This document shows positions 1,225 through 27,982 of a DNA stretch of 64,000 nucleotides, in pieces (positions within the stretch are counted from its first letter, which is position 1; the number at the start of each line of letters is the position of its first letter). The translations under genes and the position numbers were made by a program. The notes beneath the pieces are model-generated. The model was given only the letters and a program-made list of their open reading frames with translations. It was not told the DNA's origin and did not search any database. This stretch comes from Thermacetogenium sp. UBA4966 (GTDB taxonomy: Bacteria > Bacillota > DSM-12270 > Thermacetogeniales > Thermacetogeniaceae). The stretch covers positions 4,694 through 68,693 of the forward strand of contig DHAA01000113.1 of the NCBI GenBank assembly GCA_002397275.1. Reading direction: 5' to 3'.

Positions 1225-1270
1225 GGGAGTAAGCGCAGATGGTTTGCGGCGTGTATTCCCTTTTTGTTTT
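1225..1270 (+). terminator. Intrinsic terminator-like hairpin 1 in the mttB-hutH spacer
   Basis: GGGAGTA...TATTCCC stem with inner GCGCA/TGCG pairing, followed by TTTTTGTTTT. Confidence 0.5.
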
Positions 1271-1297
1271 GCGGCTGCTCACAGTCATGAGTTATGA

Positions 1298-1341
1298 GGG
1301 AGCGGAAGGCGCGTTTTGTGCGCCTCTGCTCCCTTTTCTTT
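1298..1341 (+). terminator. Intrinsic terminator-like hairpin 2 (possible attenuator) just upstream of hutH
   Basis: GGGAGCGGAAGGCGC-GTTTTGT-GCGCCTCTGCTCCC hairpin followed by TTTTCTTT. It ends about 40 nt before the hutH start. Confidence 0.55.
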
Positions 1342-5807: not shown

Positions 5808-5998
5808 ACTGTGTTCGCCTGATCGGCCCGGCATTCATTGTCATTGAGACTGAGGCGCCGGGTTGATGCCGTAAACCGTTATACAGTCAAATGGCGCCGG
5901 ATGCCGGATAACTCTTAGAATTAAGAACATGCTGCAAAAGGAGTTTCGTCGAATATAGTCGAATTTAAGCATATCTCCATTTTTGGGGGGTGTGTAAG

Positions 5999-7438
5999 AT
6001 GCAAAAGAAAAAACTAGAGCCGCTTGAAGAGCGTTTGGCCTTGCTGGAAAATGTTCTGGATACTATTTATGAAGGCGTTATCGTCACAGACACCGAGGGT
6101 AAGATAGTTTTCTTTAACAGCGCTCTGGAGAGTATGGAGGGTTTAAAAAAGAGCGAGGTGCTGGGGCGCTATCTTTCAGATGTATACAAAGTTTCGCCGG
6201 AAAAAAATGACCACCGCCAGGTGCTCAAATCAGGAAAACCATATAAAGAGCAGTCGATAACATATTTTACCACTAAAGGCGAAGAGATCAATCTTGTGGC
6301 CGGCTTTTATCCGGTCAGTCATCAAGGGCAGGTTATCGGAGCTTTTTCGCTATGCCGTGACTTTACCAGGATCAAAGAGCTGCTCACTAAAAACATGAAT
6401 CTGCAGAGGCAGGTTCAGCTGAAGAGGGACGGTGCAGAGCGCTTAAACAATGGAACCCGCTACGAACTTGAGGATTTTATCTATGCCAGCGAACAGATTG
6501 AAAGGCTGATCAATCAAGCACAGAAAGCGGCCTTGACCGATTTTCCGGTCCTGGTTTATGGAGAAACCGGGACGGGAAAGGAGATACTGGCGCAGGGAAT
6601 ACACAATGCCAGCATCCGGCGGGAGGAGCCCTTCATCGGGATCAACTGTGCGGCGATCCCGGAAACGCTGTTGGAGAGCACCCTCTTCGGCACAGTGAAA
6701 GGGGCCTTTACAGGCGCTGTCGACAGCCCGGGGTTATTTCAGCAAGTGGGCAAAGGTACGCTGTTTCTCGATGAGATCAATTCCATGCCCCTCACGCTGC
6801 AGGCTAAACTGCTCAGGGTTCTGCAGGAAAGAAGATACCTGCGGGTGGGGTGTACCAGGGAACTCCCTTTGGAATGCCGGATCATGACCTCGACGAATAT
6901 CGACCCTTATCAGTGTATTGAAGAGGGGACCCTGAGAGAGGACATCTATTACCGTTTTGCGGTTTTTACACTGTGCATACCGCCTTTAAGAGAGCGCGTA
7001 GAGGATATTGAAGAGCTTGTCAATCACTTTATTAAAAATTTCTGCAGGCTTTATGGACAGCGTGATGTGCGGCTGGACTCCGAACTGAAACAGGCTTTTC
7101 TAGGTTACAAGTGGCCGGGCAATGTCAGGGAATTGCAGCATGTGGTAGAGAGCAGCCTGGTCATGCTGAACCCCGGTCAAAGTGAGATCACCTTTGAACA
7201 CTTACCATCGTTTATCCGTCACAAATTTAAACAGCAAAAAGCTCACCTTACGCTAAAGTACACAGCGCAGAAGGATACGAAGACTTTGAACCAGATCATC
7301 AGAGACACGGAAAAACAGGTTATTGTGGATGTGCTGAGCAGCCATGGGGGGAATATCACCAGGGCTGCCGAGTCACTGGGGATTGTGCGGCAGAATCTCC
7401 AGTACCGCATGCGCAAACTGGGGATCAGCTCCCAGTAA
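5999..7438 (+). CDS. Sigma-54-dependent transcriptional activator with N-terminal PAS-like sensor domain
   Basis: Central AAA+ domain with Walker A GETGTGKE, the GAFTGA sigma-54 contact loop and Walker B LFLDEI. C-terminal Fis-type HTH (NITRAAESLGIVRQNLQYRMRKLGI). Confidence 0.9.
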   Translation: MQKKKLEPLEERLALLENVLDTIYEGVIVTDTEGKIVFFNSALESMEGLKKSEVLGRYLSDVYKVSPEKNDHRQVLKSGKPYKEQSITYFTTKGEEINLVAGFYPVSHQGQVIGAFSLCRDFTRIKELLTKNMNLQRQVQLKRDGAERLNNGTRYELEDFIYASEQIERLINQAQKAALTDFPVLVYGETGTGKEILAQGIHNASIRREEPFIGINCAAIPETLLESTLFGTVKGAFTGAVDSPGLFQQVGKGTLFLDEINSMPLTLQAKLLRVLQERRYLRVGCTRELPLECRIMTSTNIDPYQCIEEGTLREDIYYRFAVFTLCIPPLRERVEDIEELVNHFIKNFCRLYGQRDVRLDSELKQAFLGYKWPGNVRELQHVVESSLVMLNPGQSEITFEHLPSFIRHKFKQQKAHLTLKYTAQKDTKTLNQIIRDTEKQVIVDVLSSHGGNITRAAESLGIVRQNLQYRMRKLGISSQ

Positions 7439-7488: not shown

Positions 7489-9540
7489 ATGTTTACGAAT
7501 CTTGAGATAGCAGACGCCATGACGATCAAACTGAGTGATCAGCTGCCGGAGGCGCCGGAGTTTCAACCGGGTATTCGCCGGGCGCCGGACAGGGGCTTCC
7601 ACTTGTCCAGACATCAGGCCAAAATTGCCTTAAAAAACGCACTACGTTATGTTCCGCAGGAACTTCATGAGAAGCTCGCCCCTGAATTTTTGAATGAACT
7701 GCTCACCAGGGGGCGTATTTACGCCTACCGCTACCGCCCGCAAGGGAGGATTTACGCTAAATCCATAGATGAATACAAAGGCGCCTGTATTGAGGGCAGG
7801 GCGTTTCAGGTGATGATCGACAACAACCTGGACTTCGAAGTGGCCCTCTACCCTTACGAACTGGTCACTTATGGGGAGACGGGGAGCGTCTGTCAGAACT
7901 GGCTGCAGTACCGGCTGATCAAAAAGTACCTGGAGGTGTTGACCGACCGCCAGACACTGGTGGTCATGTCCGGGCATCCCCTGGGGCTTTTCCCGTCCAG
8001 GCCGGAAGCACCGCGGGTGATCATCACCAATGCCTTGATGGTGGGGATGTTCGACAATCCCCATGACTGGGAGATCGCAGAAGAGATGGGAGTGGCCAAC
8101 TACGGCCAGATGACCGCTGGCGGGTGGATGTATATCGGGCCGCAGGGAATCGTCCACGGCACCTTTAACACGCTGCTCAACGCCGGGCGGCTGAAGCTGG
8201 GGATTCCCCATGACCGCGACCTGCGGGGACACCTCTTTGTTTCCTCAGGCCTCGGGGGTATGAGCGGCGCCCAGCCCAAGGCTGTGGAGATCGCCGGGGG
8301 GGTCGGCATCATCGCTGAAGTCGATTATTCTCGGATCAAGACGAGGCATGACCAGGGCTGGGTAGGCATGGTTTCAGACGACCTGGAGGAGATTTTTAGA
8401 ACAGCCGGCGAGTATCTCCGCAAAAAGGAATCGATCTCCATCGCCTATCACGGCAATATCGTCGACCTGCTGGAGTATGCGGTGGAGAAGAACATTCATA
8501 TCGATCTGCTGACGGATCAGACCTCCTGCCATGCTGTTTATGAAGGGGGCTACTGCCCGCAGGGGATTACCTTTGAGGAAAGAACGAGGCTGCTGGCAGA
8601 GGACCGGGAGAGGTTTAATCAACTGGTCGACCGCACTTTACAGCGCCACTTTTCACTGATCAAAACCCTTACAGAACGGGGAGTCTACTTTTTCGATTAC
8701 GGCAACTCCTTTATGAAAGCGGTGTTTGACGCCGGAGTAAAGGAGATCTCCAAAAACGGCATAGATGAAAAAGACGGCTTTATCTGGCCTTCTTATGTGG
8801 AGGATATCATGGGGCCGATGCTCTTCGACTACGGATACGGCCCTTTTCGCTGGGTCTGCCTGAGCGGCAGGCATGAGGACCTGGTTAAAACAGACCATGC
8901 CGCCATGGAATGCATCGACCCCCATCGCCGCGGCCAGGACCGGGATAACTACATCTGGATCCGGGACGCCGAAAAAAATGAGCTGGTCGTGGGGTCTGAG
9001 GCGCGTATCCTTTACCAGGATGCGGAGGGCAGGATCAGGATTGCCCTCAAGTTCAATGAAATGGTGCGCAACCGCGAGATCGGCCCGGTGATGCTCGGCC
9101 GCGACCATCATGATGTCAGCGGCACAGATTCGCCCTTTAGAGAGACTGCCAACATCAAGGACGGCAGCAATGTGATGGCCGATATGGCCGTCCACTGCTT
9201 CGCCGGCAACGCCGCCCGGGGGATGAGCCTCATCGCCTTGCATAACGGGGGCGGAGTCGGTATCGGCAAATCGATCAACGGTGGTTTCGGTCTGGTTTTG
9301 GATGGCAGCGCAAGGGTTGACGCCATCATCAAATCCGCTCTGCTCTGGGATGTGATGGGAGGTGTGGCCAGGCGTTCCTGGGCCAGAAATGAGAATTCCG
9401 TCGCCACAAGTATGGAGTTTAACAGGAACCGCCGGGGGGATGCTCAGATCACCATTCCTTACCTGGCAGATGAAGAACTGGTCGAGAAATTAGTCGGGGA
9501 AGCTGTAGGGAAACAAAACCCTGAGGGGGTAAAATCTTGA
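7489..9540 (+). CDS. hutU: Urocanate hydratase (long form)
   Basis: 683 aa with the GLGGMSGAQPKA NAD-binding block and overall urocanase architecture. GGGGAGGAGAGG RBS upstream. Confidence 0.9.
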   Translation: MFTNLEIADAMTIKLSDQLPEAPEFQPGIRRAPDRGFHLSRHQAKIALKNALRYVPQELHEKLAPEFLNELLTRGRIYAYRYRPQGRIYAKSIDEYKGACIEGRAFQVMIDNNLDFEVALYPYELVTYGETGSVCQNWLQYRLIKKYLEVLTDRQTLVVMSGHPLGLFPSRPEAPRVIITNALMVGMFDNPHDWEIAEEMGVANYGQMTAGGWMYIGPQGIVHGTFNTLLNAGRLKLGIPHDRDLRGHLFVSSGLGGMSGAQPKAVEIAGGVGIIAEVDYSRIKTRHDQGWVGMVSDDLEEIFRTAGEYLRKKESISIAYHGNIVDLLEYAVEKNIHIDLLTDQTSCHAVYEGGYCPQGITFEERTRLLAEDRERFNQLVDRTLQRHFSLIKTLTERGVYFFDYGNSFMKAVFDAGVKEISKNGIDEKDGFIWPSYVEDIMGPMLFDYGYGPFRWVCLSGRHEDLVKTDHAAMECIDPHRRGQDRDNYIWIRDAEKNELVVGSEARILYQDAEGRIRIALKFNEMVRNREIGPVMLGRDHHDVSGTDSPFRETANIKDGSNVMADMAVHCFAGNAARGMSLIALHNGGGVGIGKSINGGFGLVLDGSARVDAIIKSALLWDVMGGVARRSWARNENSVATSMEFNRNRRGDAQITIPYLADEELVEKLVGEAVGKQNPEGVKS

Positions 9541-15662: not shown

Positions 15663-16760
15663 TTGGCGACTGAGATCAGGAAGTGTATCTTGAATATCGA
15701 CCCTTATGTGCCCGGGAAACCTATAGAGGATGTGCAGCGTGAACTGGGGATCGACGACGTGATCAAACTGGCGTCTAATGAGAATCCCCTAGGGCCTTCA
15801 CCGCTGGCTGTTCAGGCAGTGCAGGAGGCGGCCGCGAAGCTGAATCTTTACCCGGACAGCAACTGTTATTATTTAAAGCAAGAGTTATCCGCGCATCTGG
15901 GAGTCAGCCCGGACAATTTAATTATTGGGAATGGAATCGATGAACTGCTTACCATTTTGGGCGAAATCTATCTCAACCCCTGTGATGAGGTTGTTTTCGC
16001 CGACCCCTCGTTTCCTGCTTATGCAACGGTAACCCGTCTGATGGGCGCCAAACCCGTCGCCGTACCTGTGGACGGGCATTTTAGCCATGATCTAGAAGCC
16101 ATGGCTAAGGCGGTCACAGATCAAACCAAGCTGGTTTTTCTGTGCAACCCCAATAACCCTACGGGAAGCATGTTAACCAGAGAGCAGATCGATGCTTTTT
16201 TGGAGCAGGCGCCGCCAAAAGTGTTGGTCGTTCTGGATGAAGCGTATGCAGAGTACGCGGCGTCCAAGGATTACCCTGATGGAATTGATTATGTGCGGGA
16301 AGGGCGTAATGTGATTGTTTTCCGGACATTTTCCAAGGTCTATGGTCTGGCCGGGGCGCGGGTGGGATACGGCGCCGCGGATCCGAAAATCATTTCTCTC
16401 TTTAATCGTGTCCGTGAGCCCTTTAATGTAAACTGCCTGGCACAAATCGCCGCCTCTGCCGCTCTGCGAGACAGAGGGCATGTCGAGGCCACATTAAAGA
16501 ATAATGAGCGGGGGAAACTCTTTTATTATCAAAAATTTGAGGAATTGGGGCTCCCTTATGTTCCAACCGAGACCAATTTCATCTTTGTCGACCTGCAAGG
16601 GGACGGTAAAAAAATATTTAACGCTTTGCTGCGGAAGGGCGTGATCATCAGGCCCGGGGATATTTACGGCTATCCCCGCTGCGCACGGGTAACTATTGGG
16701 AAACCGGAAGAGAACGCCCGTTTTATTGACGAGTTGCGGAGGCTTTCCCTTGGCGCATAG
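15663..16760 (+). CDS. Histidinol-phosphate aminotransferase-like class II aminotransferase
   Basis: LASNENPLGPSP and the PLP-lysine context FRTFSKVYGLAGARVGY. The start is uncertain (TTG 15663 or GTG 15654). Confidence 0.8.
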   Translation: MATEIRKCILNIDPYVPGKPIEDVQRELGIDDVIKLASNENPLGPSPLAVQAVQEAAAKLNLYPDSNCYYLKQELSAHLGVSPDNLIIGNGIDELLTILGEIYLNPCDEVVFADPSFPAYATVTRLMGAKPVAVPVDGHFSHDLEAMAKAVTDQTKLVFLCNPNNPTGSMLTREQIDAFLEQAPPKVLVVLDEAYAEYAASKDYPDGIDYVREGRNVIVFRTFSKVYGLAGARVGYGAADPKIISLFNRVREPFNVNCLAQIAASAALRDRGHVEATLKNNERGKLFYYQKFEELGLPYVPTETNFIFVDLQGDGKKIFNALLRKGVIIRPGDIYGYPRCARVTIGKPEENARFIDELRRLSLGA

Positions 16761-16771
16761 AATATTTGCGC
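16753..16771. promoter_or_regulatory. Candidate enhancer (UAS) inverted repeat GCGCATA-N5-TTTGCGC
   Basis: 7-5-7 inverted repeat lying 41 nt upstream of the sigma-54 promoter at 16812. The same architecture occurs at 18438 and 22304. Confidence 0.55.
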
Positions 16772-16811
16772 TGCGGATGATTATTATCCTATATTAGCGC
16801 ATATTTTTGTC

Positions 16812-16827
16812 TGGTATGGTTTTTGCA
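16812..16827 (+). promoter_or_regulatory. Sigma-54 (-24/-12) promoter
   Basis: TGGTATGGTTTTTGCA, with GG and GC exactly 12 nt apart, matches TGGCAC-N5-TTGCA. It lies about 110 nt upstream of the MttB gene at 16939. Confidence 0.7.
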
Positions 16828-16938
16828 ATATAATAATTTACCAGGATCAATTAATACCGGTCGGGCGCCTTGAATCATGACAGCGTTCGGGCGGGAAGGC
16901 GGAGCGATTTCAACTACTATTTTTAGGAGGTATTCCTG

Positions 16939-18375
16939 ATGTATCTAGGTAAGCTTTACAACGAACCGGAGATTATGTTCAATACGTTGAACCAGGACCA
17001 GGTCAGGGAGATTCATTCGAAAAGCATTAGGATCCTAGAAGAACTGGGAATGGTCGTTCACCACGAAGAAGCCCGGCGGCTGTTAAAAGAGGCGGGGGCC
17101 TTTGTAGAGGGTGATAAGGTGTTCGTGCCCGCTTTTTTGGTGGAAAATGCGATCAGAACAGCGCCTTCAACCTTTACTTTATATGATCGCTGCGGGGATG
17201 CGGCAATGCATGTAGAACACCGCAATATTTACTATGGGACGGGATCCGATACGCCAAATCTCATTGATTTTGAGACCAGAGAAAGACGCAAGTGGACGAA
17301 AAAGGATGTGGAGGGCGGCATTGCCCTCTGCGACTATCTGGAAAATATCGATTTTGTGATGTCCATGGGCTTGATTTCTGATGTAGATCCGCTGCTGAAC
17401 ACTCGTGAGCAGTATGCGGTTATGATCAGAAAATCAAAGAAGCCGCAGATTGTCGTCTGCGACGACGTCAATGATTTAAATGATGTTATTGCCATGGCTG
17501 TAGCGGTGAGGGGCAGCCTGGAAAATTTGCAGCGAAAACCTCTGTTCGCCGTATATTGTGAGCCCAGCTCGCCTCTCGTCAACACCTTCAACGCCATCGA
17601 CAAGCTTTTGCTCTGCGCCGAGCAGAGAATTCCGGTTAATTATGCCGGCGGCGGATTGGCAGGGGGAACGACCCCGGTCACAGCCGCGGGAACGATTCTT
17701 TTGAATAACGCCGAGTGCTTGCTGGGACTGGTTATACACCAGCTTAAAAATCCGGGCGCTCCATTTTTGTATGGGTTCGGCAACGGGCCGCTGGATATGA
17801 AAACCATGCAGTCCATCTATTCTTCGCCGACCGCCATCCAGATTCAGGGCGGAATGTGTGAAATGGCCAGGTATTACCGCTTGCCCTCCTGGGGAGAGGC
17901 CGGGGACGGCGCCTCTAAAATGTGCGATGAGCAGAGCACCATGGAAGCATCCCACTTTATCTTGATGGCAGCCCTGCAGGGCTGCAATATAACCCATGAT
18001 GTCGGTTATCTGGATTGCGGCTTGAGTATTTCATTCGAGCATCTGGTGATCTGCGATCAGATCATCGGCAGAACAAAGGCTACGGTAAAAGAGCTGAAAA
18101 CAGATGAGGAATATTTGGGCTATGAGGCCATCGCCAGGGTCGGTCATGGCGGTAACTATATCTGCGACAAGCATACCTTTAATCATATGAAGGAAGAGTG
18201 GCGCGGGGATCTGTCTGATTTCAATTCTTATGAAACCTGGCACGGCAAAGGAAAACTGAGCATGAGAGAGCGCGCTCATGAAAAGGTGCTGCATATTCTC
18301 TCTAATTATCAGCCGGAACCGCTGGCCGCGGAAGTTGATGCCCAGATTGAAGAGATTTTAAACCAGGCCAGATAA
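16939..18375 (+). CDS. MttB-superfamily corrinoid-dependent methyltransferase (non-pyrrolysine)
   Basis: 478 aa uninterrupted ORF with MttB-family architecture and an AGGAGG RBS. It is a paralog of the ORFs at 1 and 18697. Confidence 0.88.
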   Translation: MYLGKLYNEPEIMFNTLNQDQVREIHSKSIRILEELGMVVHHEEARRLLKEAGAFVEGDKVFVPAFLVENAIRTAPSTFTLYDRCGDAAMHVEHRNIYYGTGSDTPNLIDFETRERRKWTKKDVEGGIALCDYLENIDFVMSMGLISDVDPLLNTREQYAVMIRKSKKPQIVVCDDVNDLNDVIAMAVAVRGSLENLQRKPLFAVYCEPSSPLVNTFNAIDKLLLCAEQRIPVNYAGGGLAGGTTPVTAAGTILLNNAECLLGLVIHQLKNPGAPFLYGFGNGPLDMKTMQSIYSSPTAIQIQGGMCEMARYYRLPSWGEAGDGASKMCDEQSTMEASHFILMAALQGCNITHDVGYLDCGLSISFEHLVICDQIIGRTKATVKELKTDEEYLGYEAIARVGHGGNYICDKHTFNHMKEEWRGDLSDFNSYETWHGKGKLSMRERAHEKVLHILSNYQPEPLAAEVDAQIEEILNQAR

Positions 18376-18390
18376 TAAGGGCTATGGCAT

Positions 18391-18428
18391 ACCGTTCCCA
18401 TCCTGATGGGGACGGTATATTTATTTCT
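18391..18428 (+). terminator. Rho-independent terminator
   Basis: ACCGTTCCCATC-CT-GATGGGGACGGT hairpin (one mismatch) followed by ATATTTATTTCT, 15 nt after the stop codon. Confidence 0.7.
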
Positions 18429-18437
18429 ACGTTCACA

Positions 18438-18456
18438 GCGCAAAATTTTTATGCGC
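18438..18456. promoter_or_regulatory. Candidate enhancer (UAS) inverted repeat GCGCAAA-N5-TATGCGC
   Basis: Same 7-5-7 motif as at 16753 and 22304. It lies about 140 nt upstream of the sigma-54 promoter at 18595. Confidence 0.5.
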
Positions 18457-18594
18457 GCATTATTATTTTCCGTGATCGCTCGTAGCAAGGGGGGAGAGCA
18501 TATTCCACTCCAATTCCTTTGAACATTACACAAAAGCGGAGACCGCCGTTATTAAATATGACCGCTATGCAGGGCAAGCGCCGCGGCGAGCCGC

Positions 18595-18610
18595 GGGCAT
18601 GTTTCTTGCA
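18595..18610 (+). promoter_or_regulatory. Sigma-54 (-24/-12) promoter
   Basis: GGGCATGTTTCTTGCA with the GG-N10-GC spacing correct, followed by ATA as in the other two sites. It lies about 85 nt upstream of the MttB gene at 18697. Confidence 0.65.
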
Positions 18611-18696
18611 ATACATAATTGACGGATAAAAGCTTCACATGGAGTGGAGGGCCTTGCATGGAGTGGGGGCAAATTACCGGGAAGGGGTTTTAGCTT

Positions 18697-20157
18697 ATGG
18701 CGAACAAGATATCAAATTATGAGGAACAGATTACGCCGCGTCTGCAATGGCTTTCTGATGCTCAGGTGGAACAAATCCACTATTCTTCACTGGAGGTATT
18801 GGAAAACACGGGTATTATAGTGCAGAATGCCGAGGCGCTTGCTTTGCTGAAGGGCGCGGGGTGCAGAGTACAGGAAAACCGGGTCTGGATACCGGCCTGG
18901 CTGGTGGAAGAATGCCTGCGGTCCGCGCCGAAGCGCATAACTGTGGCTAACCGCCTGGGCGAGCGGGTGATGCCTCTGGAGAAGAACCGCGTCTATTACG
19001 GGACAGGATCGGATTTGCCCTTTACCATCGACCTGGAAACAGGGAAAAGAAGATCATGCACAAAGAATGATATAGATGCCGCAGCCAAACTGTTGGACTA
19101 TCTACCTAATTTCGATTTTCTGATGAGTTACGGTATCGCTACCGATATGCCTCCCTGTGTCAGTGATCTGCACCAGTTTGAGGCCATGACCCGCAACAGC
19201 GGCAAACCGGTGATCTTTACCTCCCATAACGCCGCGAACACAGAAGCGATCATCGAGATGGCCGCGGCCTGCGCCGGCGGGCTGGATGAACTAAAAAGAA
19301 ATCCGTATATTATTTTGTTCACTCAGCCGATCCCTCCCCTGGTGCATACCAGCGATGGGATCGGCAAGATGTATAAGTGCATTGAATATGACATTCCGGT
19401 GATCTACATGCCGGGTGTGGTCGGGGGAGCAACCACACCTGTCACCAAGGCCGGTATGGTCACGCTGATCAATGCGGAGTGCCTGGCCGGAGTGGTTCTC
19501 TCCCAGTTGAAGAAAAAGGGCGCCAAGATTTTGATCGGGGCCGGGGCGACGCCTATGGATATGAAGACCACCTCCACCCTTTACGGATCCCCGGAGACAT
19601 CGATGAACTATGCGGTGTTGACGCAGCTGGCTCAGTTCTATGGTTTGGCGAACTTTACGGAGGCAGGCTGTGTCAACGCCACCCTTCCTGATGTGCAGGC
19701 AGGGATCGAGGCGGCGATGAGCGTGCTCTTGACCAAGCTGGAAGGCTGCAGCCTGGTACATGATGTCGGCTATCTTGAAGGGGGAAAAACAGGGTACCTG
19801 CCCTTCCTGGTGATCTGCGACGACATCATCGCCATGGCTCGCTACACCGGCGCCGGAACAAGGGTGACCGCGGAGACTATGGCTGTGGACGTGATCGACG
19901 AGGTTGGCCCGGGCGGGAACTATTTAATACATGCACACACCGCGAATCACTTCCGTGAAGAGATTTGGCAGCCGCGGACTTTCATCCGTTATATGTGGGA
20001 TCAGTGGGAATCCAAAGGTAAAAAGACCTGCCGGGATCTGGCTGCGGAGAAGGTTCATCAGGTTTTAGCGGAGCACCGGCCTGTTCCAGCCTCAGAGCAG
20101 GCGCTTGCCGCCATGAAAGAGATCATCAGCCGCCGCCGGAGCGAGTGTGAAGGCTGA
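18697..20157 (+). CDS. MttB-superfamily corrinoid-dependent methyltransferase (non-pyrrolysine)
   Basis: 486 aa uninterrupted ORF, colinear with the 16939 paralog (YYGTGSD, P.N/D..GG, GPGGNY..H.HT..HFREE blocks). Confidence 0.88.
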   Translation: MANKISNYEEQITPRLQWLSDAQVEQIHYSSLEVLENTGIIVQNAEALALLKGAGCRVQENRVWIPAWLVEECLRSAPKRITVANRLGERVMPLEKNRVYYGTGSDLPFTIDLETGKRRSCTKNDIDAAAKLLDYLPNFDFLMSYGIATDMPPCVSDLHQFEAMTRNSGKPVIFTSHNAANTEAIIEMAAACAGGLDELKRNPYIILFTQPIPPLVHTSDGIGKMYKCIEYDIPVIYMPGVVGGATTPVTKAGMVTLINAECLAGVVLSQLKKKGAKILIGAGATPMDMKTTSTLYGSPETSMNYAVLTQLAQFYGLANFTEAGCVNATLPDVQAGIEAAMSVLLTKLEGCSLVHDVGYLEGGKTGYLPFLVICDDIIAMARYTGAGTRVTAETMAVDVIDEVGPGGNYLIHAHTANHFREEIWQPRTFIRYMWDQWESKGKKTCRDLAAEKVHQVLAEHRPVPASEQALAAMKEIISRRRSECEG

Positions 20158-20200
20158 TTGAGGATGGCGCTTGATAAATCATATCGTGGGGGGTTGTGGC

Positions 20201-21292
20201 GTGAAAAAATATGAAATACCGAGTCCGGCTGTTATTGTTGATCTCGCCGGCGCGGAAAGAAATATCGAGCGGGTAGCCGCTCTTACTCGTAAATATGGGG
20301 TGCTGCACCGTCCGCATATCAAGGCGCATAAAAGCGAGTATTTCGCGCGCAAGCAGCTGCTGGCGGGAGCTATAGGGGTAACCGTATCCAAAATATCTGA
20401 AGCCGAAACCATGGTTGAGCACGGGATTAATGATATTTTGATCGCCTATTCCATCGTTGGGGAAGAAAAGCTGCGCAGGCTGAAAAAACTCCATGAAACC
20501 GCCCGGGTGATGGTCACTGCGGACAGCATTGAGGCGGCCAAGGGATTGGCCGGCACAGGCGCCCCGCAACACCCCCTGCCTGTGTTGATCGAGGTCGACT
20601 GTGGAACACACCGCGGCGGAAGGCAGCCTGGGGATGATGCTCTGCTGTTCGCTTTACAGTTAAAGGAGTTTCCTTCGCTGAAGATCGAGGGGATCTTTAC
20701 CTACAACGGCAACCTCTATCATACCGAGAACACAGAACAGCTGAATAGACTTGTTGCCCGGGAATCGCAATTGCTGACGGAAACAGCAGAAAATTTAAGG
20801 CGGCATGACATTCCCGTGCAGATCATAAGCGGGGGTTCGACCCCGGCTCTTGCGGCTTTGGATAAGCTGCAAGGGGTTACTGAGATCCGAGCGGGGAACT
20901 ACTTGTTCAGCGATGTTTCCGGGATTCAGTTCGGAACCGCCGGCATTGAGGATTGCGCTCTGCGAGTTCTGGCTACGGTGATCAGCGTTCCTCTTCCCGG
21001 CTATGCCACCATTGATGCCGGCTCCAAGACTCTGACAAATGATCTCTCTGTGCGCGGCGAGGGGTATGGACTCATTGTGGGGCGTCCAGGGGTGCGGTTG
21101 GTCAATCTCAATGAAGAACACGGCTACCTCCGCTATGCTCCGGAGCGGGCGCCGTTACAGATAGGCGAGCGGATCGAGATTATTCCCAATCACGCCTGCG
21201 TCCTGCCTAATCTCTGCGATAAAATCTATGGGATCCGCGGAGAAGATGTTGCCGAAGAGATCTCGGTCGATGCCCGTGGAAGAAACTATTGA
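20201..21292 (+). CDS. D-threonine aldolase / D-serine dehydratase (DSD1-like) family PLP enzyme
   Basis: HRPHIKAHK PLP-lysine motif and alanine-racemase-N-terminal-like fold pattern. GTG 20201 is preferred; the ORF is open from 20171. Confidence 0.7.
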   Translation: MKKYEIPSPAVIVDLAGAERNIERVAALTRKYGVLHRPHIKAHKSEYFARKQLLAGAIGVTVSKISEAETMVEHGINDILIAYSIVGEEKLRRLKKLHETARVMVTADSIEAAKGLAGTGAPQHPLPVLIEVDCGTHRGGRQPGDDALLFALQLKEFPSLKIEGIFTYNGNLYHTENTEQLNRLVARESQLLTETAENLRRHDIPVQIISGGSTPALAALDKLQGVTEIRAGNYLFSDVSGIQFGTAGIEDCALRVLATVISVPLPGYATIDAGSKTLTNDLSVRGEGYGLIVGRPGVRLVNLNEEHGYLRYAPERAPLQIGERIEIIPNHACVLPNLCDKIYGIRGEDVAEEISVDARGRNY

Positions 21293-21313
21293 CGCTGAGA
21301 GGGGGTGTAAAAA

Positions 21314-22282
21314 GTGGCTGTCCTTGAGCAATTCATGGCTGTCTTTCGGGCGCCGGAGTTTGTGAAGCCCTATTGGCATCATTTTGTAACAGAACAGGAG
21401 ATGGAACTCGTCGCCAGGATGGATTCCCGGCGCCTGAGCAGGGATGAAATCGCTTCCCTGTTTGTGGAGCCTGTTCCGGATGTGGACAGGCTGCTGGAAG
21501 AGGCCTACCGGCGGTTTGTGGTCAATAAAGAGGAAAAAGAAGGGGTTGTTTATTACACTGCCGGCGAGTTTTATGACAGATTGGACAACCAGTGCAAGTT
21601 CGGCAACTACTATGTTTTGCCTCCGAAGATCCGGCGGCGGTTGGACAGGTGGTGCTATGAGGAGTATCTCCAGAGGCATAATTATTTTCAATTAGTTGTG
21701 GACAACGACCCTGATTATGATAACTGTCACAACGAGCTGATTCTCCTGGCATCTGAAGTCGAAGAGATGATCGGCGCCGCTGAAAGCATAATGGCGCTGC
21801 CCTGCAACTGCAAGATGCTGGCAGATAATTGCGACAGGCCGCGCGAGGTCTGCATGTTTTTTGACAACCACATCACCGACCGCACCGGCGGAAGATATCT
21901 GAGCAAGGAAGAGGCCAGGGAGCTGCTGCGCATGGCGGACAGAAGTGGCTTGATTCACACCGGCGGCCCCTATAACTGGAGAGAAAAGGGGCTCGCTGCT
22001 GTTTGTAACTGCTGTGCCGACTGCTGTTACCCCTTGAGGGCGGCTCAGCAGCTGGGCACAAAGGGGAAGTGGCCTAAATCTCGTTATATCGCTCGCTACG
22101 ACGCCGATAAATGCCGCTTGTGCGGGCGATGCCTTAAACGCTGCCAGTTCGGCGCTTTTTATGACGACGGTAGTACAATGGCGTTCAACCCTGATCTCTG
22201 CTGGGGATGCGGCCTCTGTGCCAACACCTGCCCCGAGGGCGCCATCACTATGGAAAAAGTGGAAACTTTAGAGCAAAAATAA
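21314..22282 (+). CDS. Cysteine-rich 4Fe-4S dicluster domain protein of unknown role
   Basis: C-terminal ferredoxin motifs CRLCGRCLKRC and CWGCGLCANTCP, plus extra Cys clusters CNCKMLADNC and CNCCADCC. There is no ASKHA/ATPase domain, so it is not a canonical RamA. Confidence 0.65.
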   Translation: MAVLEQFMAVFRAPEFVKPYWHHFVTEQEMELVARMDSRRLSRDEIASLFVEPVPDVDRLLEEAYRRFVVNKEEKEGVVYYTAGEFYDRLDNQCKFGNYYVLPPKIRRRLDRWCYEEYLQRHNYFQLVVDNDPDYDNCHNELILLASEVEEMIGAAESIMALPCNCKMLADNCDRPREVCMFFDNHITDRTGGRYLSKEEARELLRMADRSGLIHTGGPYNWREKGLAAVCNCCADCCYPLRAAQQLGTKGKWPKSRYIARYDADKCRLCGRCLKRCQFGAFYDDGSTMAFNPDLCWGCGLCANTCPEGAITMEKVETLEQK

Positions 22283-22303
22283 TATTCTTTAGGCGTCCGG
22301 CAG

Positions 22304-22322
22304 ACGCAAAGATTATTTGCGT
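22304..22322. promoter_or_regulatory. Candidate enhancer (UAS) inverted repeat ACGCAAA-N5-TTTGCGT
   Basis: Perfect 7-bp inverted repeat with a 5-nt spacer, 40 nt upstream of the sigma-54 promoter at 22362. Confidence 0.55.
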
Positions 22323-22361
22323 TAAAGGGGAAAGAAGGCGCGCAAACGGTAATAATAAGTT

Positions 22362-22377
22362 TGGCACGCTTTTTGCA
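22362..22377 (+). promoter_or_regulatory. Sigma-54 (-24/-12) promoter
   Basis: TGGCACGCTTTTTGCA is a near-perfect match to TGGCAC-N5-TTGCA. Confidence 0.8.
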
Positions 22378-22807
22378 ATAAAATTAAGATGAGTGAGACG
22401 GGCAATGTTAATAGAGGGGAAATAAAGCTTAAGGGGGATTTGCCGGAGATGCGCCACAGAAGCAGCAAGGAAGATGGAAACAGAGGCGGTACTTAAACAC
22501 AGATGCTAATTCAGTAAAATCACAGCAGCGGTCGCCGTATTCAGATGAAGCAGCGGTCATGACAGGATACAGCATAATCAGACAGTAAATTGCATAGTAC
22601 ATGGGACGCTTATTGATAATCATCGTCGCACCCGGATTGCAGCAAAAGTCACCGCAAGGGCGTCCCATACCACCCCCTTAAAAATTTGATGTCGCCGCCA
22701 CATGGCGCGGTGTAGACTGTAAAAGTTCTTTGACAGCCATAATAACATTAAAAGCGAATGTTTCGCTTGGTGCAAACGACACAACACAAAAAATGGGAGG
22801 GATTTAC

Positions 22808-23440
22808 ATGGCAGATTTTAAGGAATTGGCGGGTCTTGTGATCAGCGGCGATGTGGAGAAGGTTATCAGCACGACGCGGCAGATGCTTGACGCCGGGGAA
22901 GACCCCATGAAGATCATCAACGAGGGATTGATTAACGGTATCAATGTCATCGGCGAACGCTTCAAAGAAGGGGAGATCTATGTCCCGGAAATGATGATGG
23001 CTGCTCAGGCGATGAAGTCCGGGATGGAACTGGCCAAAGAAAAGGTTGAGGGGAGCGACATTCCCACAGCCGGCAAGGTGATTATGGGAACAGTGGCGGG
23101 AGACCTCCATGATATCGGCAAGAATCTAGTGGCTATGATGCTGGAGAGCAGCGGCTTTAACGTGGTGGATCTTGGTGTTGATGTGGAGGCAGACAAATTT
23201 ATCGCCGCTGTCAGGGAACACAATGCCCAGGTTATCGGCATGTCCGCTCTGCTGACCACCACCATGCCCGCGATGAAAGAGGTTATTGAAGCGCTGAAAG
23301 AGGATGGCCTGCGCAGCAATGTTAAGGTTATGATCGGCGGAGCGCCCGTTACCCAGGATTACGCCGATGAGATCGGCGCCGATGGTTTTGCCGCGGATGC
23401 AGGAATCGCCATCGATCTGTGTAAACAGCTGGTTGGATAG
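22808..23440 (+). CDS. Corrinoid (cobalamin-binding) methyltransferase partner protein, MtgC/MtbC-like
   Basis: About 210 aa with a helical cap plus a B12-binding Rossmann domain carrying DxHxxG (GDLHDIGKN) and SALLTTT. ATG 22808 has a GGGAGGG RBS; the ORF-track start 22730 is probably too long. Confidence 0.85.
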
Positions 23441-23493
23441 ATCGACGGGACTATGCCATATATGTTGGAAAAGGGTTAAAGGAGGCCGGGCCT

Positions 23494-23907
23494 GTGCCTG
23501 GGAACAACAGGATAATCCTCGGTGTAATCGGGTCTGATGTTCATGCCGTCGGCAACAAAATTTTGGAGATGAGCTTTCAAGAAGCCGGTTTTAAGGTGAT
23601 CAACCTCGGGGTGATGGTTTCACAGGAGGAGTTTATCCATGCCGCTATAGAGAGCAGCGCGGGGGCTATTCTGGTCTCTTCTCTTTACGGACATGGCGAA
23701 ATGGACTGCCGCGGGTTGAGGGAAAAATGCCGTGAAGCCGGCTTGGGAGATATACTGCTCTATGTGGGCGGCAACCTGGTTGTGGGGAAACGCACCTTTT
23801 CAGAGGTTGATCAACAATTCAAAAAAATGGGTTTTGATCGTGTTTATCCCCCCGGTACGCTGCCGGAGGAGGCTATTGCTGAATTAAAGAGGGATCTCGA
23901 CTTATGA
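23494..23907 (+). CDS. glmS: Glutamate mutase (methylaspartate mutase) small sigma subunit
   Basis: 137 aa with very close colinearity to clostridial MutS/GlmS ([42 protein letters not shown]). Confidence 0.92.
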
Positions 23908-25274
23908 AGGCACTGCTGATCGACTTTGGAAGCACCTTTACCAAGGCAACCCTGGCGGATTTAGAACCTCCGGGTCTGATCGGTACTTTCAGAGCGCCGA
24001 CCACAGCAGATACCGATCTGATGGATGGCTTTCACAGAGCGATAGAGGGATTCTCCCCGGAGCAGCTGGATGGTATAGCAGTAAAAAGGGCCAGCAGTTC
24101 CGCAGCCGGGGGATTGAAGATTGCGGCCGTTGGACTTGTACCGCAGCTTACGGTAAAAGCGGCCAGGGAGGCGGCTTTGGGCGCCGGGGCGCGGGTCGTG
24201 GCAGCCTGTGCTTATACGTTGACTGAGGATGAGATAAGAAAAATAAAAGATTTAAAGCCGGATCTGCTGCTGCTGGCCGGCGGCACTGACGGCGGAGATA
24301 AAAGAACCATACTGGAAAACGCGGCCAGAATAGCGGAATCAGAGTTATCCGCCCCCGTTGTTGTCGCCGGGAACAAGGCAGCCGCCCCGCAAGCGGAAGC
24401 GATTCTCAAGGATAAGGTATCACGAGTGGTGGTTACCGGAAACGTGATGCCGGATATCAATGTGCTTGCAGTGGAACCGGCGCGCCGGGCGATCAGGGAG
24501 CTTTATCTGCAGGAGATTACTAAAGCAAAGGGATGGGAACATGTTCAAAAGCAGGTCGGTCTGGCTATGCCCACCCCCCTCGCTGTGATGAAGGCGGGAG
24601 AACTTTGCGGCAAGGTCCGCGGAGAGGAAATTATGATCGTTGATGTGGGCGGCGCCACGACCGATATCCATTCCTTTGCAGACGGCGCCCCGAAAAGAAG
24701 CGGCTGTATTCTCAAAGGGCTGCCTGAGCCGTTCATCAAGCGGACAGTGGAAGGGGATCTGGGGATGCGCGTCAGCCTGCGCTCTCTGCTGGAAGTGATC
24801 AGCGCCAAGGGCTTGCCCGCGGAGATCCCCTTTGCGGCAAGCGACGGCGAGATGGCTGCTTTTATTGACCGGGTGAGCAGCGACAGGGGTTCCCTGGCGA
24901 GAAATGAAAGAGAAAAGCATTTTGACCGCGCCTTTGCCGTCGCCTGTATCAGAGAAGCGCTGCGGCGGCATGCGGGAACCGTAACTGAAGCCTATACTCC
25001 GGAAGGCAAATTATGGGTGCAGAGCGGCAAAGATCTGACGGAAGTGGAGATGCTGATCGCCACGGGAGGCGCCCTCGTTTTTGCCGATGATCCTGGAAGT
25101 TTGTTAAAAGCCGGGCTGAGGCCGGACGACCCCTTATCTCTTACCCCCCGCCGGCCTCGGCTCGCGCTTGATCATCAATATACCCTCTACGCCGTAGGAC
25201 TGTTGGCTGATCTTTATCCGGAAGCGGCGGAGATGCTTTTAAAGGAAACCTTGTTATCGTTAGGGGAGGTATAG
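23904..25274 (+). CDS. glmL: Glutamate mutase accessory/reactivase protein
   Basis: Sits between glmS and glmE as in clostridial operons, with an N-terminal [15 protein letters not shown]-like phosphate loop. The start overlaps the glmS stop. Confidence 0.8.
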
Positions 25275-26729
25275 GTGTTGAAGCTGAAGAATCAGAGGTG
25301 GGAGAAGGCTTACTTTGAGCAGGAGCGAGGCTCTGTCTTAAATTCCTGGCCCACCGGACAGGAAGTTGACCTTGAAGACGCCTTCCGGTTTCACCAATCC
25401 CTGCCGGAGAGCAAGAGGGCATACTGCAAGCTGCGCGCAGGAGAGGAAAGCAAAATCATTTATCTCCAGCCCCGCGCCGGCGTTGCCTTGCTTACGCAAC
25501 ATATAGAACTATTATCCGCGCTGGAATCAAAGGGCGAGGCGGATTTCTTGCCGACAACCATTGATTCTTATACCCGTCAGAACCGCTATTCCGAAGCAGC
25601 CAGAGGAATTGACGAATCAAAAGCCGCCGGTAGATCATTGTTGAACGGCCTTCCCGCTGTAAATTATGGCGTGGCTAATTGCCGCAAGATCATCAATGCT
25701 CTCCACCTGCCTGTTCAGATCAGGCACGGCACGCCGGATGCGCGGCTGCTGGCGGAGATCACGCTGGCCGCGGGCTTTACCGATTTTGAAGGAGGGGGAA
25801 TTTCCTATAATATCCCCTATGCCAAGGATGTGCCGCTGGAGCGCTCCCTCGCTCACTGGCAGTATGTGGACCGTCTCTGCGGGGTTTATGCAGATGAGGG
25901 GATTATCATCAACAGGGAGATGTTCGGACCCCTGACCGGCACGCTGGTTCCGCCATGCATTTCGCACGCGGTCGGCATAATCGAAGCCCTGCTCGCCGCG
26001 GCTCAGGGGGTGAAGAGCATCGCCGTCGGCTATGGCCAGGGGGGAAACATCTACCAGGACACGGCGGCTCTGCGCACGCTTGCGCGGCTGGGAAGAAAAT
26101 ACCTTGATCAATATGATTTCCCTGACGTCTTGCTGACCACCGTATTTCACCAGTGGATGGGGGGCTTCCCCCAGGAGGAATCGCGAGCTCTGGGAGTGAT
26201 CGCCTGGGGCGCCGCCACCGCGGCTTTAGCCGGTGTAAATAAGGTGATTGTCAAGACTCCCCATGAAGCCCTGGGGATACCCACAGCCGAGGCTAATATC
26301 GCGGGGCTTCTCTGTACGCGGCAGGTGATGCGTATGCTGGGCGAGCAGTCATTGGCGACGACCTCCCGCCTCAAGGAGGAACAGGATATCATTGAGCAGG
26401 AAGTCGATGAGATATTATGCAAAATCTTCGAACTGGGAGAAGGAGACCTTGCCGCGGGAGCTGTGCGCTCCTTTGAAGCAGGTGTGCTGGATATTCCCTT
26501 TGCTCCTTCCCGTTATGCCAGGGGGAGCATTATGCCCGTGCGGGATAATAACGGCGCCATCAGGTTTCTGAACACCGGAAACATCCCTTTTTCGCAAGAA
26601 ATTAAGGATTTTCACCGCAAAAAAATTGAGGAACGGGCGCAGATGGAAAAAAGAGAACCGGGCTTTAGGATGGTCATCGACGACATCTATGCCATCAGCA
26701 AGGGCAGGCTGGTGGGGAAACCGAGGTGA
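25275..26729 (+). CDS. glmE: Glutamate mutase (methylaspartate mutase) large epsilon subunit
   Basis: 484 aa TIM-barrel-type subunit in the canonical glmS-L-E-mal order. Confidence 0.88.
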   Translation: MLKLKNQRWEKAYFEQERGSVLNSWPTGQEVDLEDAFRFHQSLPESKRAYCKLRAGEESKIIYLQPRAGVALLTQHIELLSALESKGEADFLPTTIDSYTRQNRYSEAARGIDESKAAGRSLLNGLPAVNYGVANCRKIINALHLPVQIRHGTPDARLLAEITLAAGFTDFEGGGISYNIPYAKDVPLERSLAHWQYVDRLCGVYADEGIIINREMFGPLTGTLVPPCISHAVGIIEALLAAAQGVKSIAVGYGQGGNIYQDTAALRTLARLGRKYLDQYDFPDVLLTTVFHQWMGGFPQEESRALGVIAWGAATAALAGVNKVIVKTPHEALGIPTAEANIAGLLCTRQVMRMLGEQSLATTSRLKEEQDIIEQEVDEILCKIFELGEGDLAAGAVRSFEAGVLDIPFAPSRYARGSIMPVRDNNGAIRFLNTGNIPFSQEIKDFHRKKIEERAQMEKREPGFRMVIDDIYAISKGRLVGKPR

Positions 26730-26737
26730 ATGGGAAG

Positions 26738-27982
26738 ATGTATATAGAAAAGGTTCTGGCAGCGCCGGGTTTGACCGGTTTTTATTTCGACGATCAGCTG
26801 GCGATCAAGAAAGGGGCCGGAGAAAATGGCGCGGCCTACAGCGGCCGGCCGTTGACCCCCGGTTTTATAGAGGTGCGTCAGCGCGGGGAATCATTGTGTA
26901 TTATGTTTTTGCTTTCCGACGGACAGGTGGCTTATGGAGACTGCGCCGCTGTTCAGTACTCCGGAGCGGATGGCCGGGATCCCCTTTTCCTGGCGGCGGA
27001 TTTTATACCGCTGGTCGAGGGTTATCTGGCGGAGAGGCTGGAGGGGATGCAGATTTCTACATTTCGGGCGCCCGCGGAGGAGTTTGACGCTCTCCCGGGA
27101 CCCGATGGCCAAAGGATGCATACCGCTTTGCGCTATGGGCTGACCCAGGCTCTGCTCCATGCCGTCGCGATCAAAGAGAAGAAGCTGATGTGCGAGGTTC
27201 TGGCAGAGGAGTACAATACCGGATTAATTGCCGAGCCGGTCCCAATTTTTGCTCAGACCGGTGATGATCGTTACAGCAACGCCGACAAAGCAATTATCAA
27301 ACGGGCCGATGTGCTGCCGCACGGCCTGATCAATAATGTAGAGCTCAAGCTGGGAGGCAGCGGAGAGAAGCTGTACGACTATGTGTCCTGGCTGAGGAAG
27401 AGGGTGGCGGAACTGGGGGGCGAGGATTACCGTCCGGTTCTGCACATCGATGTTTACGGGACTCTAGGCCTGGCCTTTGAGAACAACCTGGAGGGGATAG
27501 CTGATTATTTGGCTCGCCTGGAGACCGCGGCCTCCCCCTTGCGGCTGCGCGTCGAGGGGCCGGTAGATATGGGGTCGAAGGAGCAGCAAATAGAAGCCCT
27601 GAGCAGGCTGAAGATACTCCTGGTAACAAAAGGGACAAAGGTGGAGATCGTGGCTGACGAGTGGTGCAACACGCTGGAGGATGTGCGGGATTTTGTGGAT
27701 GCCGGCGCAGGCCATATGGTGCAGATCAAGACCCCTGATTTGGGAGGAATCAACAACACCATAGACGCTATTCTCTATGCCAGGGCTCATGGAGCAGGCG
27801 CCTATCAGGGAGGGACCTGCAATGAAACAGACCGCTCGGCCCGTGTCTGTGTGCATTTAGCCCTGGCTGCCCGCCCTGATCAGATGCTGGCTAAACCGGG
27901 GATGGGTGTGGACGAGGGAATGATGATTGTGATGAATGAAATGCAGCGTGCCCTGCGCATCTTGAAGTATAGATCGGGGTAG
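26738..27982 (+). CDS. mal: Methylaspartate ammonia-lyase
   Basis: Colinear with clostridial beta-methylaspartase (PGLTGFYFDDQ.AIKKGAG, CAAVQYSGA.GRDPLF, HMVQIKTPDLGG, GGTCNET.RSA). ATG 26738 is preferred; the ORF is open from 26726. Confidence 0.92.
   Translation: MYIEKVLAAPGLTGFYFDDQLAIKKGAGENGAAYSGRPLTPGFIEVRQRGESLCIMFLLSDGQVAYGDCAAVQYSGADGRDPLFLAADFIPLVEGYLAERLEGMQISTFRAPAEEFDALPGPDGQRMHTALRYGLTQALLHAVAIKEKKLMCEVLAEEYNTGLIAEPVPIFAQTGDDRYSNADKAIIKRADVLPHGLINNVELKLGGSGEKLYDYVSWLRKRVAELGGEDYRPVLHIDVYGTLGLAFENNLEGIADYLARLETAASPLRLRVEGPVDMGSKEQQIEALSRLKILLVTKGTKVEIVADEWCNTLEDVRDFVDAGAGHMVQIKTPDLGGINNTIDAILYARAHGAGAYQGGTCNETDRSARVCVHLALAARPDQMLAKPGMGVDEGMMIVMNEMQRALRILKYRSG

Follow-up and report, generated by a model that had tools for sequence, protein, structure and literature searches.

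Gene Organization of the Locus

We have analyzed a window of 64,000 nt from Thermacetogenium sp. UBA4966 (contig DHAA01000113.1), which contains three predicted sigma-54 promoters, each preceded by an inverted repeat, and the gene of a RocR-family enhancer-binding protein (EBP; 5999–7438, plus strand), the proposed activator of these promoters. All coordinates refer to the whole window, and labels of the form Lnnn denote loci fetched from other genomes. According to Pfam, applied to 49 open reading frames (ORFs), and NCBIfam, the window starts with a partial MttB gene, followed by hutH, hutI, FTCD-N, FTCD-C, the EBP gene, hutU, and genes of an Opu-type ATP-binding cassette (ABC) transporter. 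The middle part comprises genes of AcnX, RidA and an aminotransferase, the first repeat and promoter with the MttB2 gene and a terminator, and the second repeat and promoter with genes of MttB3, a pyridoxal phosphate (PLP) enzyme and an Fe-S protein. The third repeat and promoter precede genes of a corrinoid protein, glmS, mutL, glmE, and methylaspartase; further on, AtuA, DUF4387, a xanthine-dehydrogenase-like set and a fumarase/mesaconase are encoded.

Predicted Sigma-54 Promoters and Inverted Repeats

The promoter strings of the original prediction are confirmed by direct reading of the sequence, with the exact GG-N10-GC spacing and ATA immediately following each of them. Promoter 1, TGGTATGGTTTTTGCA (16812–16827, predicted start at ~16838), precedes the monocistronic MttB2 gene (16939–18375); promoter 2, GGGCATGTTTCTTGCA (18595–18610, predicted start at ~18621), precedes the operon at 18697–22282; and promoter 3, TGGCACGCTTTTTGCA (22362–22377, predicted start at ~22388), precedes the operon at 22808–27982. 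All three are intergenic and lie on the plus strand, 127, 102, and 446 nt from the start codon, respectively, and share the extended –12 region TTGCAATA. Compared to the consensus TGGCACG-N4-TTGCW they score 10/12, 10/12, and 12/12, promoter 2 being the weakest of the three. When both strands were scanned with GG-N10-GC required and a threshold of at least 10/12, no other site of the window was retained. Intergenic DNA constitutes approximately 9% of the window, and all three promoters fall into it and are aimed at the next gene.

The inverted repeats, candidate upstream activating sites (UASs), are likewise present as originally described, with seven-nucleotide arms separated by five nucleotides. 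UAS 1, GCGCATA-GAATA-TTTGCGC (16753–16771), has arms complementary in six of seven positions, shares nucleotides with the aminotransferase stop codon, and is centered 51 nt upstream of the –24 GG. UAS 2, GCGCAAA-ATTTT-TATGCGC (18438–18456), also has 6/7 complementary arms and is centered 149 nt upstream of the GG of promoter 2, whereas UAS 3, ACGCAAA-GATTA-TTTGCGT (22304–22322), is a perfect palindrome (7/7), centered 50 nt upstream of the GG. Thus the gap between the end of the repeat and the promoter string is 41 nt at site 1 and 40 nt at site 3, compared to 139 nt at site 2. A relaxed form of the palindrome, [CT]GCA[AT]A-N5-T[AT]TGC[AG], is found in exactly three copies in 64 kb, with 0.04 expected, and each copy is followed, at a distance of 58–157 nt, by one of the promoter strings.

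Sites 1 and 3 each have an additional half-site (GCGCATA, 16797–16803, and GCGCAAA, 22340–22346, respectively) in the gap that separates the full palindrome from the –24 element. A second, degenerate palindrome at ~43 nt from the first and third repeats was considered and rejected: inspection by eye reveals half-sites only, and the spacing is unlike the tandem arrangement seen in relatives.

Conservation in Related Genomes

Orthologues of the MttB genes in relatives have promoters of the TGGCATGGTTTTTGCW type, which are preceded by NCGCAAA-N5-TTTGCGN palindromes. The promoter 1 block, TCTGGTATGGTT(T/C)TTGC, is invariant in L009 and L010 despite the divergence of its flanks, and UAS 1 aligns with TGCAAA-AGTTA-TTTGCG in Thermacetogenium sp. 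UBA5472 (L010). Promoter 3 and its counterpart in L010 (7588–7616) are identical at 26 of 29 nt, with further equivalents in L009 and L019–L022, while upstream of the MttB3 orthologue in L009 the palindrome ACGCAAAGGTTATTTGCGT is retained. Altogether, GG-N10-GC is preserved in approximately 20 related promoters. A variant of the palindrome, TGCAAA-N5-TTTGCA, occurs in the more distant genomes of Desulfofundulus, Peptococcaceae, Desulfosporosinus, and Paradesulfitobacterium.

The distances between palindromes and promoters were measured across 25 promoter regions. At seven promoters from five genomes (L009, L010, L015, L020, L046) the center of the proximal palindrome is 49–52 nt upstream of the GG, the distance shared by sites 1 and 3 of the window, and in other promoter regions it is 58–62 or 72–73 nt. 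The repeated occurrence of the 49–52 nt distance in relatives indicates that the 40–41 nt gap is a conserved architectural feature. In most relatives a second palindrome is present further upstream, mostly by 31–49 nt.

Good sigma-54 promoters are also found in relatives beside genes of hut, major facilitator superfamily proteins or pterin methyltransferases (L004:3453, L006:3264, L043:4153).

The Enhancer-Binding Protein and Its Association With the Motif

The claim that the window encodes a single sigma-54 activator is borne out by Pfam, as among the 49 ORFs Sigma54_activat is found solely in 5990/5999–7438, between the FTCD and hutU genes. The product translated from the ATG at 5999 has 479 amino acids (the same as P0001) and the domains PAS, Sigma54_activat, AAA_lid_14, and HTH_8, the latter a Fis-type helix-turn-helix (HTH). 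It has the GAFTGA motif at residue 238 and the Walker A motif GETGTGKE, and its AAA+ core matches solved structures of bacterial EBPs in PDB with E-values of 1e-60 to 1e-65. In the closest genomes, those of Thermacetogenium sp. UBA5472 (L010), Syntrophaceticus spp., and allied metagenome-assembled genomes (MAGs), the EBP is 72–84% identical and retains its position in hutH-hutI-FTCD-EBP-hutU-ABC. The recognition helix RQNLQYR(M/I)RKL is unchanged among orthologues with identity from 52 to 100%.

A conserved block of ~40 nt (5938–5978), AAGGAGTTTCGTCGAATATAGTCGAATTTAAGCATATCTCC, with the direct repeat GTCGAA-N4-GTCGAA, directly precedes the EBP start; it is present in L001 and L006 and partly in L004, and could be a promoter or operator of the EBP gene, or an RNA element. 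In L043, CGCATAATAATTTTGCG is found at 9896, directly before the EBP gene of that locus.

In a blind scan, we searched one genome per species (185,579 species) for CGCAWA-N5-TWTGCG followed at 36–66 nt by TGGYAYG-N4-TTGC. This yielded 28 loci, compared to approximately eight expected by chance according to our estimate. Five of the 28 are Thermacetogeniaceae MttB loci, and 12 belong to Bacillaceae, where the gap between the palindrome and the promoter is 40–41 nt in nine cases, as in the window. At most Bacillaceae loci the next long ORF has ~515 codons (RocA-like) or ~400 codons (RocD-like). One RocA-like product was confirmed as L-glutamate gamma-semialdehyde dehydrogenase (TIGR01237, 849 bits with the cut-off at 660), and one RocD-like product, as ornithine aminotransferase, above the NCBIfam equivalog cut-off. 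In nine of the 12 Bacillaceae loci a full-length PAS-AAA-HTH EBP, 38–43% identical to that of the window, is encoded within the 8-kb locus, and in the cases whose geometry was worked out it is divergently adjacent to the site. Most of these roc-linked EBPs have the helix SRQSLQYR, compared to VRQNLQYR in the window EBP. As the scan recovers the palindrome at rocA- and rocD-type loci of Bacillaceae together with a homologous EBP, we assign it to the RocR-subfamily UAS type.

The window EBP itself is not an orthologue of RocR proper, given its identity of 38–43% to roc-linked EBPs and its neighbors, which are hut, opu, and MttB genes. It reaches no NCBIfam equivalog cut-off, the best one being PrdR (379 bits, with the cut-off at 795). 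The low identity, the non-roc neighbors and the lack of an equivalog assignment together indicate a separate orthologous group of the RocR subfamily.

Members of this group (52–60% identical, with the helix RQNLQYR) adjoin such sites in other gene arrangements, and their neighbors again include MttB, hut, or betaine transporter genes. In Zhaonella formicivorans, the EBP gene is followed by several dyads of the TGCAAA-N5-TATGCA type, a sigma-54 promoter, and MttB-MttB-hutH-hutU-hutI-FTCD. In Desulfosporosinus/Paradesulfitobacterium, the EBP gene and a sigma-54 promoter precede opu-ABC and Fe-S genes, after which MttB-MttB follow a UAS with another sigma-54 promoter. In a Clostridia MAG (L043), the EBP gene is followed by a UAS with a sigma-54 promoter and hutU. 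No other EBP is found in MttB loci of the related clade that carry palindromes. Hence, the palindrome travels with one EBP family across genomes, from the Bacillaceae loci of the scan to Zhaonella, Desulfosporosinus/Paradesulfitobacterium and L043, which at the level of sequence constitutes a strong association between the EBP and the palindrome, rather than proof.

In Sporomusaceae bacterium UBA7701 (L065, 1705–3340), a palindrome and a sigma-54 promoter precede the gene of a RocR-like EBP itself (43% identical), and this arrangement suggests autoregulation of the EBP in that lineage.

Assessment of the Regulatory Interpretation

We consider it probable, with a probability of about 0.7, that the three sites are sigma-54 promoters, each served by a 17-bp dyad, xGCAWA-N5-TWTGCx, of the RocR-subfamily UAS type, with the EBP of the window as the activator. 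Several observations weigh against this interpretation. Three matches with scores of 10/12 or higher are not above chance, as block shuffles average 3.65 per window; the non-random part of the promoter signal is the placement of the matches, not their number. The palindromes of the window are single, while most relatives carry two. No rpoN or sigL gene is visible in the 64-kb window, and the GAFTGA-type EBP points to sigma-54 only indirectly. Other observations of this kind bear on particular alternatives and are given with them.

One alternative does without sigma-54 and the EBP: the genes would be transcribed from sigma-70 promoters, and the palindromes would be repressor operators or small terminator hairpins. 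Indeed, promoter 1 is overlapped by a sigma-70-like sequence with a score of 10/12 (TTGTCT-16-TATAAT), hexamers TTGGCA-18-TAAGAT overlap site 3, and the palindromes can fold, with energies of –5 to –7 kcal/mol, the first and the third of them being located at stop codons. However, the conserved block at promoter 1 is the GG...GC segment, that is, the spacer of the sigma-70-like promoter rather than its hexamers, and GG-N10-GC is kept in the ~20 related promoters. We reject the palindromes as terminators, as the hairpins are weak and no U-tract follows them. Moreover, neither terminators nor operators would be expected to keep a fixed distance of ~50 nt to the GG, or to recur in the same layout at roc genes of Bacillaceae near RocR-like EBPs. 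Therefore this alternative appears highly improbable.

The second alternative concerns site 2. In this case only sites 1 and 3 would be real, the string at 18595 would be a chance match, MttB3 would be transcribed from another promoter or by read-through, and the palindrome at 18438 would either serve promoter 1 or 3 from afar or be a relic. By chance alone, a window is expected to contain about 3.7 matches of 10/12. The –24 element of site 2 reads GGGCAT, with the non-consensus G instead of T before the GG (position –26), and the palindrome is 149 nt away, not ~50. Furthermore, in the orthologous region of L009 the palindrome is kept and the GG-N10-GC promoter is absent; L009 is the one evaluable orthologue, the L010 region being masked by N. 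On the other hand, the string is intergenic and faces MttB3, whose start codon follows at 102 nt, and distal palindromes at 161–209 nt are found beside good promoters in relatives. A strong terminator (18389–18418) is located just upstream, and so some promoter is needed before MttB3; the plus strand from the terminator to the beginning of MttB3 yielded no sigma-70-like promoter. On balance, we find a spurious site 2 somewhat unlikely.

The third alternative accepts the promoters and palindromes as described and assigns the binding to a paralogue of the RocR family whose gene lies elsewhere in the genome, beyond the window; the EBP embedded in the hut operon would then control other genes, e.g., hut or transport genes, via another site. 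Most of the 120 closest homologues, with identity down to 45%, have the helix RQN(L/M)QYR, and hence the true binder could be such a paralogue; the helix alone conveys no specificity, and its identity is unusable as a means to exclude paralogues. In addition, the sigma-54 promoters beside hut genes of relatives mentioned above (L004:3453, L006:3264, L043:4153) lack a palindrome within ~320 nt upstream, the closest case being a core-disrupted match with three mismatches ~100 nt upstream of L043:4153. These promoters may be served by a distant site or another activator, leaving room for a second specificity. However, neither the 64-kb window nor any palindrome-bearing locus of the clade encodes another EBP, in DTU068 a single contig (L004, L021) carries both the EBP gene and the palindromes, separated by ~14 kb in which no further EBP is encoded, and the orthologous EBP directly adjoins the motif in three other gene arrangements. 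Binding by a paralogue is thus unlikely. The original assignment of the window EBP as the activator is in turn favored by comparative data, namely by the orthologues beside such sites and by the Bacillaceae architecture, site 2 being the weak point.

Assuming the RocR-type interpretation, sigma-54 RNA polymerase would form a closed complex on the –24/–12 elements, and EBP dimers would bind the palindromes, whose centers are ~75 nt before the predicted start at sites 1 and 3 and ~174 nt at site 2. By analogy with RocR, a small molecule bound by the PAS domain would lift inhibition and allow for the assembly of the AAA+ ring; the GAFTGA loop would then touch sigma-54, with ATP used for promoter opening. 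The predicted targets are MttB2; MttB3 with the PLP enzyme and the Fe-S protein; and the operon of the corrinoid protein, glutamate mutase, and methylaspartase.

Transcription Units and Their Leaders

The first predicted target, MttB2 (16939–18375, plus strand; Pfam family MTTB), has no in-frame amber codon and scores 373.8 bits in NCBIfam, below the trimethylamine-specific cut-off of 525. More generally, the MttBs of the window are full-length, have no amber codon and stay under that cut-off. Transcription units 1 and 2 are divided by the intrinsic terminator on the plus strand, a 13-bp stem followed by a T-run (18389–18418), and a resembling hairpin is also seen in L009. Operon 2 (18697–22282, plus strand) consists of genes of MttB3 (18697–20157), a PLP enzyme with the alanine racemase fold, similar to D-serine dehydratase (20171–21292), and a conserved 322-aa protein with a C-terminal 2x[4Fe-4S] domain (21314–22282), as annotated with Pfam and NCBIfam; the same gene order is repeated in L010. 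Operon 3 (22808–27982, plus strand) encodes, according to Pfam, the corrinoid protein, glutamate mutase S, MutL, glutamate mutase E, and methylaspartate ammonia-lyase. Its corrinoid protein is MtgC-like yet under the NCBIfam cut-off, and is translated from the ATG at 22808 with the ribosome-binding site GGGAGGG, 420 nt past the predicted start of promoter 3.

This 420-nt leader contains a pseudogene remnant on the plus strand (22420–22600), with a ribosome-binding site, ATG, and approximately the first 50 codons of an MttB2-like gene, interrupted by stops. The remnant matches L020 (5562–5697) with a blastn E-value of 7e-7, and in the alignment with L020, L021, and L010 the mean column identity is 75%. 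No Rfam family reaches the gathering threshold in the leader; we rejected a riboswitch or another known RNA there, as a permissive Rfam search gives only PYLIS_3 inside MttB3 and the pseudogene explains the leader. In relatives, the equivalent of promoter 3 drives MttB3-like, MttB2-like, corrinoid protein, glmS, mutL, and glmE genes as one operon. The remnant here and the intact pair in relatives indicate that the lineage of the window lost the MttB pair and kept the promoter for the remaining genes. The regulatory link between the MttB genes and the corrinoid/glutamate mutase operon, which was originally predicted from the shared sites, is thus strengthened by the single operon of relatives, and judged from this comparison of gene orders the link is ancestral.

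The partial MttB gene at the start of the window (35–1153) was considered as the relocated missing pair and rejected, as its identity to the other MttBs is only 27–30% and none of the fetched loci contains a close homologue. In MttB3, a sub-threshold match to PYLIS_3 is observed at 19670–19768 (23.6 bits, with the gathering threshold of 38; E = 0.1). PYLIS_3 is the pyrrolysine insertion element of mttB, and in the amber-less MttB3 the match is probably residual sequence similarity.

The hut operon, which carries the EBP gene, has a leader at 1165–1340 (plus strand) with a sigma-70-like promoter, TTGAAA-17-TATACT (1165–1193), two NAG-N4-NAG-N4-NAG sites (1209–1225 and 1282–1298), and a strong hairpin at ~1298–1333 followed by a U-tract, with a possible second hairpin with a U-tract upstream. 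The same layout is found upstream of hutH in L001 (4755–4925), and hutP genes are located upstream of hut in L004 and L006; no hutP gene is present within the 64-kb window. The leader looks like a HutP-type antitermination signature. As the EBP gene lies inside this operon, the EBP is probably made only when histidine is present. The regulation would then be a two-tier cascade, in which histidine, via HutP, permits the synthesis of the EBP, and the ligand of the EBP subsequently licenses the sigma-54 promoters.

Possible Metabolic Role

A recurrent set of genes is observed in at least four genera in varied orders (L046, 3107–21401; L027, L029, L017, L018, L011, L013; and 1380–27982 of the window). 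It includes opu-ABC, the gene of the 320-aa Fe-S protein, a pair of MttB genes from two subfamilies, the corrinoid protein gene, hutH, hutU, hutI, FTCD, and the EBP gene; in some relatives it is joined by glutamate mutase. The composition of this set suggests a catabolic route through which a methylated histidine or some other betaine would enter the Hut pathway.

A more specific possibility, based on this clustering and on a lyase paralogue of one relative, is put forward tentatively, and we regard it as doubtful: the regulon may be the mark of an anaerobic route, not described so far, for the breakdown of an N-methylated histidine, e.g., hercynine (histidine betaine). Uptake would proceed via the Opu-type ABC transporter, and the compound would then be processed by the paired MttB-family corrinoid methyltransferases, with the product passing through Hut and FTCD to glutamate and then to the methylaspartate pathway, and the PAS domain of the EBP would sense the substrate or an early intermediate. 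In some relatives the compound would also be processed by a paralogue of histidine ammonia-lyase (HAL) devoid of the methylideneimidazolone (MIO) prosthetic group. In Syntrophaceticus schinkii such a paralogue (L020, 2221–3735) is 42% identical to HutH of the window and lacks the Ala-Ser-Gly MIO triad (GSVGY-LAIESH). Its gene has its own palindrome (at a distance of 51 nt) and sigma-54 promoter (L020:2035) and is located just upstream of an MttB pair, and the closest solved structures are HALs, not ergothionase; possibly the protein acts as a lyase on a histidine derivative with a quaternary amine. The application of this scheme to the window calls for caution: the hut-linked MttB pair is lost there, and as the remaining MttB2 and MttB3 are found beside AcnX, RidA, and the aminotransferase, their substrate may differ. 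A literature search found no paper linking hercynine with MttB or corrinoid methyltransferases.

We rejected the possibility that the HutH- and HutU-like proteins of the window are ergothionase and thiourocanate hydratase, as both exceed the respective NCBIfam equivalog cut-offs, HutH has the ASG triad, and ergothionase scores far lower. HutI is likewise above its equivalog cut-off. The urocanase (7489–9540) has 683 residues, of which the hutU model covers 103–640, leaving an N-terminal extension of ~100 residues; this long form is kept in relatives with 79–90% identity. Outside these pathways, the feoB gene on the minus strand (43739–45755) is split into FeoB_N (192 aa; 45177–45755) and an overlapping Gate/FeoB_C part (486 aa; 43739–45199), which could reflect a frameshift, a pseudogene, or a sequencing error.

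Pyrrolysine-free MttB-superfamily methyltransferases are numerous in anaerobic Firmicutes, most of them without a known substrate. The cultured Thermacetogenium phaeum, from the clade that the window resembles, has MttB-type genes, yet grows on neither trimethylamine nor betaine (PMC3551663). A defined activator together with its DNA site and promoters provides an experimental handle. The EBP ligand is expected to be either the substrate of the pathway or an intermediate close to it, and the motif permits listing of regulon members in any related genome. Moreover, the RocR-type layout, with the dyad centered ~50 nt upstream of the –24 GG, extends beyond the arginine catabolism of bacilli to one-carbon and amino acid catabolism in syntrophic acetate oxidizers and Peptococcaceae-like bacteria.

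Comparison With Known Systems

The system is most similar to RocR and the roc genes of Bacillus and relatives. The common features are the PAS-AAA+-HTH_8 architecture with a similar recognition helix, the 17-bp dyad CGCAAA-N5-TTTGCG with a gap of 40–41 nt to TGGCAYG-N4-TTGC (in the nine of 12 Bacillaceae loci), and, as predicted here, several promoters under one activator. For the UAS, the similarity was established by scanning Bacillaceae genomes and not by reference to the B. subtilis footprint in the literature. The ATPase of RocR is kept inactive by the PAS domain as long as ornithine is not bound, and the N-terminally truncated protein is constitutive (PMC10404663). The differences are the targets, which in the window are MttB-family methyltransferases, the corrinoid protein and glutamate mutase rather than roc genes, the location of the activator gene inside a hut operon, and the identity of 38–43% to roc-linked EBPs.

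NtrC (NRI) at the enteric glnAp2 promoter is similar in that sigma-54-dependent transcription is activated from dyads to which a dimer with a Fis-type HTH binds. The 6-5-6 geometry and the GCA...TGC core of the palindromes are shared by the NtrC consensus, TGCACC-N5-GGTGCA. In contrast to the PAS one-component sensor considered here, NtrC is a phosphorylated response regulator; the inner bases of the half-sites differ, and NtrC sites are usually located further upstream, at –100 to –140.

Amino acid catabolic operons are also controlled by one-component EBPs of the PAS type in the regulons that Nie et al. (2019; PMC6615313) reconstructed for sigma-54 in Clostridiales. One of these EBPs, HiaR, is the predicted activator of hiaL-hyp-hutH, and no MttB regulon was found in the reconstruction. 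We considered the window EBP as a candidate HiaR and rejected this assignment, since the HiaR site given there, CTTTTTTAAAAATCATAG, is unrelated to the palindrome. In a 2025 survey of Clostridia with position-specific scoring matrices (PMC12316311), MttB (COG5598) is already listed as one of the gene families with enrichment downstream of predicted sigma-54 promoters. In the available text of these two papers we found no description of the UAS, the EBP group, or the link to hut and glutamate mutase, and a literature search for sigma-54 combined with MttB found no paper. The mechanism as such is standard and belongs to textbooks; what is new is the specific EBP group, its UAS, and its set of targets.

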